DNA from: a virus
Reading direction: 5' to 3' (one strand)
UHGV virus genome: UHGV-0322174
DNA length: 32,168 nt
Made by a program: the position numbers. Each line of letters starts with the position of its first letter. Positions within the stretch are counted from its first letter, which is position 1. Below are positions 1-3,000 of the stretch, piece after piece.

Positions 1-3000
1 GGAAAAAATCACAACAGGTGTGTCATACACCACGTCAGCGGTGGGAACGGGCTACTGGTTCCTGCAGTTGCTGGACAGGGTTTCCCCGTCTCAGTGGGCG
101 GCAATAGGCGTGCTGGGGAGTCTGCTGTTTGGGCTGCTGACGTACCTGACTAACCTGTATTTCAAAATCAAAGAGGACCGGCGTAAGGCGGCGCGGGGAG
201 AGTAAGCTGATGAGCAGGAAATTCCGCTATGGTTTATCAGCGGTCGTTCTGGCGCTGATTGCTGCGGGCGCTTCTGCGCCTGAAATCCTCGACCAGTTTC
301 TTGACGAAAAAGAAGGTAACCACACCACGGCATACCGTGATGGTGCGGGTATCTGGACTATCTGCCGCGGTGCCATCCTGGTGGATGGCAAACCTGTCGT
401 TCCGGGCATGAAGTTGTCGAAGGAAAAATGCGACCGGGTTAACGCCATTGAGCGTGATAAGGCGCTGGCATGGGTGGAGAAAAACATCAGAGTGCCACTG
501 ACCGAACCGCAGAAAGCGGGCATCGCGTCATTCTGTCCGTACAACATCGGGCCTTCGAAATGCTTCACCTCAACGTTTTACCGGAAACTGAACGCAGGAG
601 ACCGGAAAGGTGCATGTGCTGAAATCCGCCGATGGATATATGACGGCGGCAGGGACTGTCGGAACCGCTCAAATAACTGTTACGGGCAGGTATCGCGGCG
701 TGACCAGGAGAGCGCGCTGGCGTGCTGGAGTATCGACAGATAAGCAGAATATTCTGCTGAAAAATGCCGTTGACCAACGCGAACGGATAACACGAAACCC
801 TGCGAACTGGCAAAATTTAAGTGAGTAAAAGTAAAAACCCCGTTTGTTGGCAGCAAGCGGGGTTTTGTGTTTCTGACCTTGAATAAGGCAAGGGAGAAAT
901 TATGGGTAGGGAGGTTCTTTCCCTGTGAGGAAGTATAAAAGATTCTTTCTGAGGTTGTCCATTATGAAAGGCATTGAGGTGGAGACGCCAGCAAGTCTGG
1001 ATTTAACAAGAGCGGCAGCTTTTGCCATTCGTATTGTGGCAATTGCTGTTCTGGTCTGGGCAATCCGTTGGTGGTGATATGAATCGTGTGCTGTATGGCG
1101 TGCTTATTGTCCTGCTGCTTGGTTGTGGATCGCTGTGGCTGGCAACAGACCATTACCGTGATAACGCCATCACCTACAAAGAGCAGCGAGATGATGCGAA
1201 GACAAAACTCAGCCAGGCGAACGCCACCATTGCTGACATACAGCAGCGCCAGCGTGATGTTGCTGCACTCGATGCCAGATACACCAGGGAGCTTGCTGAT
1301 GCTAACGCGACTATTGAAAGTCTCCGTGCTGATGTTTCTGCTGGGCGTAAGCGCCTGCAAGTCGCCGCCACCTGTGCAAAGTCAACGACCGGAGCCAGCG
1401 GCATGGGCGATGGAGAAAGCTCAGGACTTACAGCAGATGCTGAACTCAATTATTACCGTCTCCGAAGTGGAATCGACAAGATAACCGCGCAGGTTAACTA
1501 CCTGCAGGAGTACATCAGGATGCAATGCCTCGATTAACAGAGCCAGCTCAATCGCTGGCCTTTTTTATGAGGAGAGATATAACCTGAATCAATGCCAGTG
1601 CATTATCAACAAATGGATCACTGGGTAAGCTCGTTTGGTTTTAAATGTCCGTCGAGAATCAGATTGTGATTTTCCCGATGCAGAACCAGTGTGCCCATAT
1701 AATCAGGTTTAAATCTCCATCCATTCATTTTTTTTGCAATTCTGGACAGACAGTGATTATGTGTGAAAATCACAGTAACATGATCTGATTTTGATATTTT
1801 AAGGATATTATTTACTGCGTTATCATCACATGTCGATATGTCCGGAATAGTTGCTGTCTTACCTCCCGAAAAAAAAGTGGCTGTCTGCATTGTTCGGAGT
1901 GTGTCTGTAGAATAGAGACTGTAGTATGGAAACATTCTTCTGAATTTATCTCCATATTGTTGAGCTTTGTTAGCTCCGTTTACTGTGATTCCCTCATGTG
2001 CTGAAAGACATATTCTTTGGGAGCGATCGCATCTTTCCCCATGCCGGATGAGAAAAATAATGGGATGTTTCTGGTTAATCTCAGTGACATCGTTCACATC
2101 AAGTCTGACTGGAGTTCTTACAATGTATATGATGGATACAGAAACGATTATGACAAGTAAAAATATAAGAAGAGATTTTGTTAGCGTTTGATTTAACATA
2201 TAAATTCCCTTGTCTGTGTTGAAAATGGGCATTATTATGCGTAAATCTTATGTAATCCTTAAGGATTGTCTGACGTGGTGATATGACGCGAAATACAGTG
2301 GGTACACAGAATGCTGTGAACAACGACGAAATGGGCATTGGTAGCGGTACTGGTGCTTTTTTTATTGGTTGGTTGCTCAAGTCTTGATAAAGCGCGTTAG
2401 CTTTTTGGTATTGCCTCTTAGGTCTGTAAAATTGCCGACGGTGTCCGGCAGTGCATGCAGGGCTGATCGTCTATGAGAACAGAATATATTGCTAAAAATG
2501 AAGTGTGCGTCAATGCTTATAAAGCATGCAATTCTGTATTTCTAACTATTCAATAAAATAAATTCTTTCTGTCGCAGTGAATATACAAATGTTGATCAGC
2601 GCTCGATGTGGCGACGGGTTTCTATATCAGGAGACTTTGGCATTTATCCGCGAGGCAGCCTATCTGGTGCTGTAGTGGAATGAAGCGGATATAACCTAAA
2701 TAAGGTTAAACATTAATCAGACATGGCTCTGCTGTGTGAAATCTGAAAATTTACAGCAGTCATTGTGCATCAGTTTTTAACAGAGAACGTCAGAAGGTGA
2801 CATGGCAAAGCTGGACTGGAAAAAGCTGGAGCAGGCATTTCGACGCGAACATGTCAAAACCGGCATAAAGCTTCAGGACTGGTGCCGTCAGAACAATATC
2901 AGTTATGACACGGCTCGGCGGTACATTAAACTGCGCAAACACTCCCCCAGAAATACAGAGAAAAGTGCGCAGAAAAATGCGCAAATTGATGATCAAAAAA

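Follow-up and report, generated by a model that had tools for sequence, protein, structure and literature searches.

The 32,168-nucleotide viral genome UHGV-0322174 (hereafter the window, the whole stretch of DNA that was analysed) begins with the phage-21-type lysis operon of an Escherichia coli O104:H4 prophage. The window is 100% identical to E. coli O104:H4 and 99% identical to phage GER2. On the plus strand, a class II holin gene of the phage-21 type (1–205, with about 10 nt of its 5' end outside the window; PF04971, E=5.9e-29; "class II holin family protein" in RefSeq at the identical O104:H4 locus) is followed by the gene for endolysin R, an R21-type lysozyme (210–743, with a TAA stop codon at 741–743; PF00959, E=5e-25; phrog_7; "lysozyme" in RefSeq), and by the i-spanin gene Rz (1079–1537; PF03245, E=8e-37; phrog_13). 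The subject of this work is the 335-bp spacer that separates R from Rz, which is 100% identical to that of a prophage of E. coli O104:H4 FDAARGOS_349, 99% identical to that of GER2 and 94% identical to that of the O157:H7 prophage Sp4, and in particular a small open reading frame (ORF) within it that corresponds to ECs_1094 of that prophage.

The small ORF runs from an ATG at 964 to a TGA at 1075–1077, and the ATG of Rz follows at 1079. A second clade of phages (L061–L087) encodes the same protein at 86–90% identity within a different lysis module. Comparison of the ORF with this clade gave a pS of 0.71 and a pN of 0.05 (the synonymous and nonsynonymous values, respectively), corresponding to a ratio of nonsynonymous to synonymous change (dN/dS) of 0.026 (Fisher p=4e-12), with no comparable synonymous bias in the other two frames. 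The reading frame is thus kept with the strong synonymous bias by which the original prediction had proposed to recognize a real gene. The antisense frame of the small ORF is open in the window, and we considered whether an antisense ORF of 42 aa (900–1028), sharing third codon positions, could be the cause of this bias; however, stop codons interrupt it in 4 of 10 homologs, and we rejected this possibility. Judged by these comparisons, the small ORF is a genuine gene under strong purifying selection. The identical protein is encoded in O104:H4 and in O157:H7 (RefSeq WP_000675931.1; ECs_1094 in Sakai), where it is annotated as hypothetical. It occurs, with its ORF intact, on at least 1000 contigs from Escherichia, Shigella, Salmonella and Citrobacter, and the ORF is also intact in 674 complete genomes that carry the full spacer.

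The protein matched phrog_4493 (E=1.4e-24, profile positions 1–54 of 56) as well as phrog_1115 (E=2e-11) and phrog_3246, all of which are families of unknown function. Because an exhaustive hidden Markov model search of 1.8 billion representatives returned only 27 clusters, the family is, on this measure, narrow. Its members share the motifs M.xG[LI]E..P...[RK]A.AFA[IV]R-TM-[RK]WW-stop (TM, transmembrane span) and, at the N-terminus, Y-K-R-F-F-L-R-L-S. The gene is already catalogued in PHROG and RefSeq; its start site, the cassette structure and the hairpin set out below are not described there, and surveys of the lysis cassettes of Shiga toxin (Stx) phages make no mention of these ORFs.

The original prediction and the RefSeq gene model both confine the gene to 964–1077 (37 aa). 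While that ORF is real, it is probably too short, as the family extends N-terminally to position 925. The full product is probably a membrane protein of 50 aa, encoded at 925–1077 on the plus strand (MRKYKRFFLRLSIMKGIEVETPASLDLTRAAAFAIRIVAIAVLVWAIRWW) and starting at a GTG codon, a gene model that draws on the full-length match to phrog_4493, the dN/dS ratio, alternation of the start codon and the homologs. Most copies read GTG at 925, with ATG in L008 and L061, homologs of 36–56% identity all extend 5' in frame with the basic motif x-Y-K-R-F-F-L-R-L-S-x-M, and several divergent homologs have an ATG start behind a Shine-Dalgarno (SD) sequence. The methionine at 964 is invariant and preceded by GAGG, and a second, shorter product initiated there is possible. 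As for the product itself, the 50-aa form carries a charge of +5 over its first 13 residues, followed by an acidic linker, a C-terminal hydrophobic helix and RWW at the very end. AlphaFold2 returned a single long helix, with a predicted local distance difference test score of 94–96 over the last 20 residues, and the small protein is predicted to insert into the membrane.

Upstream of the GTG lies a leader (877–924, plus strand), delineated by sequence and folding, that contains one SD sequence (AAGGGAG, 891–897), the start of a mini-ORF (902–928) and a second SD sequence (AGGGAGG, 908–914), which can pair with TCCCT at 920–924. The mini-ORF comprises eight codons (MGREVLSL) behind a strong SD sequence, and its stop codon overlaps the GTG at 925 (GTGA). 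Its ATG occupies the position at which the first cassette gene begins in relatives; compared with PhiR5_2-type phages, the window type has gained a 23-nt insertion that displaced the ancestral start and gave rise to the mini-ORF and the new SD sequence. A promoter scan found no plus-strand promoter between the hairpin and the ORF.

The hairpin that precedes the leader is GC-rich, with an A-run on its 5' side and a T-run on its 3' side (834–876, stem-loop 834–866), and was delineated by a terminator scan, by folding of both strands and by covariation. It comprises 15 pairs followed by TTTTGTGTTT, with a ΔG of about -21 kcal/mol. Its tail reads UUUUGUGUUU on the plus strand and UUUUUACUUUU on the minus strand, and by sequence it qualifies as a canonical intrinsic terminator whichever strand is read. 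An alignment of 13 divergent copies resolved to one stem, with changes on both sides in 7 of 11 pairs; paired cells in this alignment amounted to 86.7%, compared with 72.5% in shuffles, and the covariation score was 0.42, compared with 0.15 in shuffles and at most 0.115 when partners were slid. The terminator-like hairpin noted earlier at 834–866 is accordingly borne out as a GC-rich stem-loop with a U-run, and its stem is kept by compensatory changes. Among relatives of the spacer the hairpin and its flanks are nearly invariant, and the 90 nt on its 5' side are about as variable as silent sites. All contexts examined have a GC-rich hairpin approximately 35–70 nt 5' of the long start, flanked by A-rich sequence on its 5' side and by a TTCTGA-like sequence on its 3' side, and the core pattern (A-rich, CCCCG...CGGGG, TTCTGA-like) recurs in eight unrelated upstream contexts. 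On this comparative evidence the hairpin is a conserved 5' element of a cassette that also includes the leader and the gene.

Other readings of the hairpin were examined. A scan of positions 1–3000 against Rfam at E≤1 gave a single match, a sub-threshold rimP-leader that corresponds to the terminator read on the minus strand. The minimum-energy fold of the plus strand pairs 785–803 with 855–878, the 3' arm and U-tract of the terminator, in an alternative helix of 19 bp; we dropped this helix as a candidate because, although most substitutions in relatives leave a wobble pair, one pair is lost in a common variant. We likewise rejected an integron-type attC reading of the hairpin repeats described below, as the hairpin is about 34 nt long, its flank is GTTCTGA rather than GTTRRRY, and no integrase was present in the flanks examined.

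The spacer falls into two parts, of which the approximately 155 nt after R (744–899) are widespread and the remainder is variable in content. The widespread part begins with a non-coding stretch (744–833, plus strand) that contains no ORF and matches no Rfam family, is linked to R in Stx and lambdoid phages, and diverges fairly freely. The post-R element (744–899) follows R in 322 phage records, mostly of Stx phages, at 80–95% identity. Of 5426 complete E. coli genomes, 1333 contain it, and as many as 7 copies occur in a single genome. We picked 104 IMG/VR loci by the hairpin alone and then checked them for Rz and for ORFs. Rz was found within 2.4 kb in 100 of the 104, and every one of these 100 loci had between one and four small membrane-protein ORFs in the interval. 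The last of these stops 1 nt 5' of Rz, or overlaps it as GTGA, in about 95 of the 100, which confirms the placement of the small ORF's stop codon 1 nt before Rz and extends it to related loci.

We named the families that occupy this slot F1a (the window ORF), F1b, F2 (phrog_6632) and F3 (phrog_4906, for example ECs_1966 of Sakai). The most frequent arrangement was F2 (35 loci), followed by F2-F1b-F3-F1a (26 loci), F1b-F3 (about 18 loci), F1a alone as in the window (16 loci) and F1b-F1a (3 loci). In this phage group the window ORF is one of several interchangeable genes for tiny membrane proteins, belonging to at least three families and present in one to four copies per phage. Lambdoid phages, Stx phages among them, have genes of phrog_4906 (1825–1971 in L090, Sakai ECs_1966) and phrog_6632 in the slot before Rz (also L003, L004 and L007), sometimes accompanied by an antirepressor gene; both families are uncharacterised.

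These surveys change how the spacer is to be regarded. It had been called unusual, yet it is the norm in this phage group, as small ORFs fill it in all 100 loci and the post-R element recurs across 1333 genomes; in the closer relatives of the cassette the spacer measures 210–555 nt and is in all cases filled with small ORFs. Because R overlaps Rz in DLP12 and abuts it in one distant phage, H76, comparison of these sequences indicates that the spacer is an insertion relative to the DLP12/H76-type arrangement. The earlier suggestion that it might be the remnant of an insertion consequently holds in one respect, in that it is inserted relative to DLP12-type cassettes, and fails in the other, in that it is intact and under purifying selection.

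The unit of hairpin, leader and ORF was found in eight genomic contexts of diverse phages. In addition to its place after R and before Rz in the window, and likewise in an unrelated phage (L219), it lies after an M15 endolysin gene and a 116-aa ORF, coupled to the gene for a 60-aa lipoprotein (L063); after tail-fibre genes, overlapping the start of a lysozyme gene (L217); after the lambda-like capsid genes C/D/E, near a holin-like ORF (L211); before a gp25-like baseplate gene (L214–216); after GP7/Bbp16 structural genes (L212); and after a minor tail gene (L218). In the contexts examined the cassette is always co-oriented with the late genes and tightly abuts them. By its sequence contexts it looks like a mobile late-operon cassette rather than a regulator specific to Rz. 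In L211, positions 2423–3115 contain three copies of a 48-nt hairpin repeat (77–94% identical) between tiny membrane-protein ORFs, one of them holin-like, and the same region has two unrelated ORFs whose ends, AVRWW-stop, are conserved at the DNA level.

The 3' boundary of the unit is also shared. RWW-stop closes the ORFs of both F1 and F2, which are unrelated families, in L211 as well as in E. coli, and this boundary has the look of a linker. Over the stop codon of the cassette and the start of Rz lies the junction sequence GTGGTGATATGA (1071–1082, plus strand), which contains the SD-like GGTGGTGA. The exact 12-mer GTGGTGATATGA occurs twice in the window, at 1071–1082 and 2275–2286, where 0.01 copies would be expected by chance, and the two copies enclose Rz/Rz1 and a minus-strand ais-like gene. 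Behind the second copy (approximately 2296–2463) is a lipoprotein pseudogene of phrog_7528, with 68% identity and three in-frame stops. Intact phrog_7528 is the 60-aa lipoprotein whose gene is coupled to the same small ORF in L063-type phages. The repetition of GTGGTGATATGA suggests recombination at a conserved junction sequence.

Taking these observations together, we consider it rather probable that the spacer is a self-contained accessory cassette, made up of the hairpin, the leader and the gene for a protein of about 50 residues, that sits at the R/Rz boundary and has an accessory role at the stage of lysis. We favour a lysis-stage role because a holin, endolysin or Rz gene adjoins a family member in 5 of the 8 contexts, far above the few per cent expected under random placement. 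The link to lysis that had been proposed for the small ORF is to this extent plausible. A dedicated partner of Rz, of a pinholin or of a signal-arrest-release (SAR) endolysin is unlikely because the protein occurs with a different endolysin, a different holin and different downstream genes. The spanin modulator and the antiholin envisaged by the original prediction lose ground in particular: homologs are coupled in the same manner to a lysozyme, a small lipoprotein or a baseplate gene, or follow capsid genes, and the small protein has no holin match in Pfam or PHROG, possesses a single C-terminal hydrophobic helix, and is accompanied by a holin encoded by a separate gene (PF04971). Nor does it resemble an i-spanin, as its span is C-terminal with only RWW beyond it and homologs occur without an adjacent Rz.

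If the cassette works as its sequence leads us to propose, the ORF would have no promoter of its own and would be transcribed late, within a Q-antiterminated S-R-Rz message that ignores the hairpin. Translation would begin at the GTG at 925, with ribosomes re-initiating after the eight-codon mini-ORF, or at the internal ATG at 964, and ribosomes terminating at 1077 would re-initiate on Rz. The protein would then insert into the inner membrane with its N-terminus inside, as a tail-anchored peptide made at the time of lysis, and would act there as a non-essential modulator, for example of timing or of membrane integrity, and not as a partner specific to Rz. A fuller version of this proposal is doubtful as a whole. 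It holds that the unit is an undescribed, promoterless, mobile phage cassette for a tail-anchored "RWW" peptide that settles at gene boundaries of late operons, preferably in lysis modules, recombines via the hairpin and the RWW-stop-ATG junction, is expressed only by translational coupling, and is perhaps held in check by a cis-antisense RNA running from within the gene's first codons to the hairpin.

Several points weigh against an accessory lysis cassette of this form. Three of the eight contexts are not beside recognised lysis genes, and the lysis role is, in our analysis, one of guilt by association only. Scans of the small protein against Pfam, NCBIfam and PADLOC gave no match, and a literature search found no paper naming the peptide, its accession, ECs_1094 or ECs_1966. 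The 12-codon extension taken alone has a dN/dS of 0.10 (p=0.09), so that the start in use may be 925 or 964, and only 11 residues make up the hydrophobic core between the arginines. Finally, the plus-strand hairpin is a good E. coli terminator, so that expression of the ORF would need antitermination, and Q and pR' lie outside the window.

Among other explanations, the one to which we give the most weight, while still thinking it unlikely, is that the hairpin is a mere terminator or 3'-end stabiliser of the S-R message, unrelated to the ORF, and that small genes simply accumulate behind such hairpins. This would fit the canonical plus-strand terminator directly after R in E. coli and the position of the hairpin elsewhere, 10–40 nt behind an upstream stop codon such as that of the major capsid gene. 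It fits poorly with the recognisable likeness of the hairpin core and flanks across eight unrelated upstream contexts, with the 48-nt hairpin copy that stands before each unit in L211, and with the poor plus-strand U-tail of several copies. A slightly less likely account, and the main named rival to an accessory lysis cassette, is a unit resembling a type I toxin-antitoxin system, in which an antisense RNA silences the membrane-active peptide and the gene coupled to it until late transcription swamps it. A promoter scan placed a putative sigma-70 promoter-like site (TGGACA-18-TATACT, score 10/12) at 932–961 on the minus strand, within the first codons of the ORF; a putative antisense RNA of about 95 nt would end at the hairpin and cover the leader, both ribosome-binding sites and the GTG start, and the fold predicted for it is a good one (z=-3.4) that includes a terminator and a U-run. 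A minus-strand promoter-like site of 8–10.5 bits falls in the same codons in 9 of 10 divergent homologs, compared with 0.8–4.7 bits on the plus strand, and the hairpins of L219, L217 and L211 have a U-rich tail or wobble pairs only on the minus strand. The model would also account for the constant spacing at which hairpin and ORF move together. However, synonymous recoding revealed that the peptide sequence alone yields promoter-like scores nearly as often (p=0.03–0.82 per locus), stem wobble in the E. coli copies favours the plus strand, the antisense RNA belongs to no Rfam family, and the peptide has no Pfam match to the type I toxins Hok, Ldr, Ibs or TisB. We discarded an "ultra-conserved" block (931–971) as proof of an antisense promoter, since over such a short segment the difference in density does not reach significance, and the recoding test is weak. 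The Sakai table of Hfq crosslinking and analysis of cDNA (CRAC) peaks has no peak in the R-Rz spacer of Sp4. Known prophage small RNAs were set aside as well: AgvB, AsxR and the Pas small RNAs map upstream of the holin gene or at the moron site of pR'. The published Hfq peaks EcOnc10, EcOnc11 and EcOnc12 (Tree et al. 2014, Table S2), in Sakai Sp10 (L090, about 1946819–1946867), Sp9 and Sp12, map some 75 nt beyond the 3' end of Rz, antisense to the late genes; the equivalent place in the window is the 3' end of the ais-like gene.

The remaining explanations seem to us less probable still. According to one, which is quite improbable, the gene is a moron that benefits the lysogen: a peptide made from the prophage would protect its host, for instance through exclusion of superinfecting phages at the inner membrane as with HK97 gp15, and the gene's position among lysis genes would be incidental. 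In its favour, the product is a small, predicted inner-membrane protein, the cassette-like spread over several late-operon positions is mosaic, and another moron, the minus-strand ais-like phosphatase gene, is nearby; such a gene would nevertheless lack a plus-strand promoter between hairpin and ORF, the upstream terminator would block read-through in the lysogen, its tight translational coupling to late genes is conserved, and PADLOC offers no match. We regard as marginally more improbable a specific regulator of the neighbouring lysis proteins, whether a pinholin antiholin, a releasing factor for a SAR endolysin or a spanin modulator. The location between R and Rz, the coupling to Rz, the predicted membrane character of the protein and the precedent of lysA in phage P2, a timing gene between endolysin and spanin genes, all agree with such a function, but an 86–90% identical protein is encoded behind an M15 endolysin that is not of the SAR type, in the company of a different holin and with Rz not next to it, more remote homologs stand in front of a baseplate gene or behind capsid genes, and three unrelated families of small proteins substitute for one another at the same position. 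That the ORF is spurious, or a decaying remnant of an insertion, is by far the least credible of these explanations. Although the ORF is short, contains no known domain and is annotated as hypothetical, and although the 23-nt insertion of the window type displaced the ancestral start, the selection measured against the second clade (dN/dS 0.026, p=4e-12) contradicts this explanation, as do the intact copies in at least 1000 contigs and 674 complete genomes and the conservation of divergent homologs.

The accessory cassette can be set beside several well-known systems. The lysA gene of phage P2, between the genes for endolysin K and the spanin LysB, encodes a membrane protein with several membrane spans that affects the timing of lysis. 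The small ORF likewise encodes a membrane protein, looks non-essential and occupies the corresponding slot of a lysis operon; LysA, however, is larger and has no sequence similarity to it, and the present family is not tied to that slot. HK97 gp15 is a small inner-membrane protein of superinfection exclusion encoded by a lambdoid moron. With such morons our cassette shares the presence of extra DNA between genes that are adjacent in relatives, a mosaic spread, a small membrane protein and an associated hairpin terminator, but a classical moron has its own promoter upstream and a terminator downstream, whereas here the hairpin is upstream, no promoter was seen and the gene is coupled. By the definition of Juhala/Hendrix, the extra gene between adjacent genes is present and the promoter and downstream terminator are absent. 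The hok/mok/sok system resembles the cassette in having a tiny hydrophobic peptide, an overlapping upstream reading frame (as mok is for hok) and possibly a cis-antisense RNA, and differs from it in sequence, with no Rfam or Pfam match, in that the present gene lies inside a late operon and is not free-standing, and in that the antisense RNA here is putative. Dual-start holins (lambda S105/S107, S21 68/71) offer a parallel in that products of the in-frame starts at 925 and 964 would differ by a positively charged extension; the extension here is 13 residues, and the small protein has one C-terminal span instead of two or three. On balance of this analysis the gene is most like a moron or an accessory lysis gene of the P2 lysA kind, yet it falls outside the definitions of a classical moron, holin, antiholin and i-spanin.

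Other features of the locus are less closely tied to the cassette. The palindrome noted directly after R is present, but it is a perfect palindrome of 16 bp rather than 14 bp (AGCAGAATATTCTGCT, 743–758), overlapping the end of the R stop codon, and it is not conserved. Nearly all of 61 distinct aligned relatives carry GCAGAATATTTTGC, with T for C at 754, and GER2 carries GCAGAATGTTCTGC; because nearly all relatives have this mismatch, the perfect palindrome is, on the alignment, a lineage-specific single-base state. The whole window contains five perfect palindromes of at least 14 bp, compared with 1.9 ± 1.3 expected from Markov simulations. They lie at 743, 2254, 5893, 14734 and 14837, and several have restriction-site-like cores (CTTAAG, CCCGGG, ATCGAT, TGATCA). 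The palindrome after R is probably due to chance, or is at most a small hairpin behind the stop codon. Turning to the lysis genes, the N-terminus of R is weakly hydrophobic, and we infer from its sequence that R may be a SAR endolysin. The gene for the o-spanin lipoprotein Rz1 is embedded in Rz (1299–1484, plus strand; identified by translation and by the RefSeq Rz1 annotation in O157), and a terminator scan detected a terminator-like hairpin 3' of Rz (1542–1568, plus strand). Beyond it, a histidine-phosphatase gene occupies 1618–2232 on the minus strand (in RefSeq, an ais-like lipopolysaccharide core heptose(II)-phosphate phosphatase). This ais-like gene is a moron in reverse orientation between Rz and the terminase genes and is truncated in the annotation of GER2.

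About a quarter of complete E. coli genomes, including those of O157:H7 and O104:H4, and most Stx phages carry a post-endolysin element with one to four genes for tiny membrane proteins ahead of the spanin genes. These genes would be co-expressed with the proteins that release phage and Shiga toxin, and any effect on the timing or efficiency of lysis would bear on the release of toxin. The analysis yields a testable set of genes (ECs_1094, ECs_1966), a gene model corrected to 50 aa and a candidate for a modular cassette whose boundaries are defined. Should the tiny genes be neutral passengers, they would still exemplify mosaic exchange at conserved gene junctions. If instead the fuller proposal of a mobile, translationally coupled cassette is true, these peptides would be a new class of lysis-stage membrane effectors, widespread in the prophages of enterohaemorrhagic E. 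coli and in Stx prophages.

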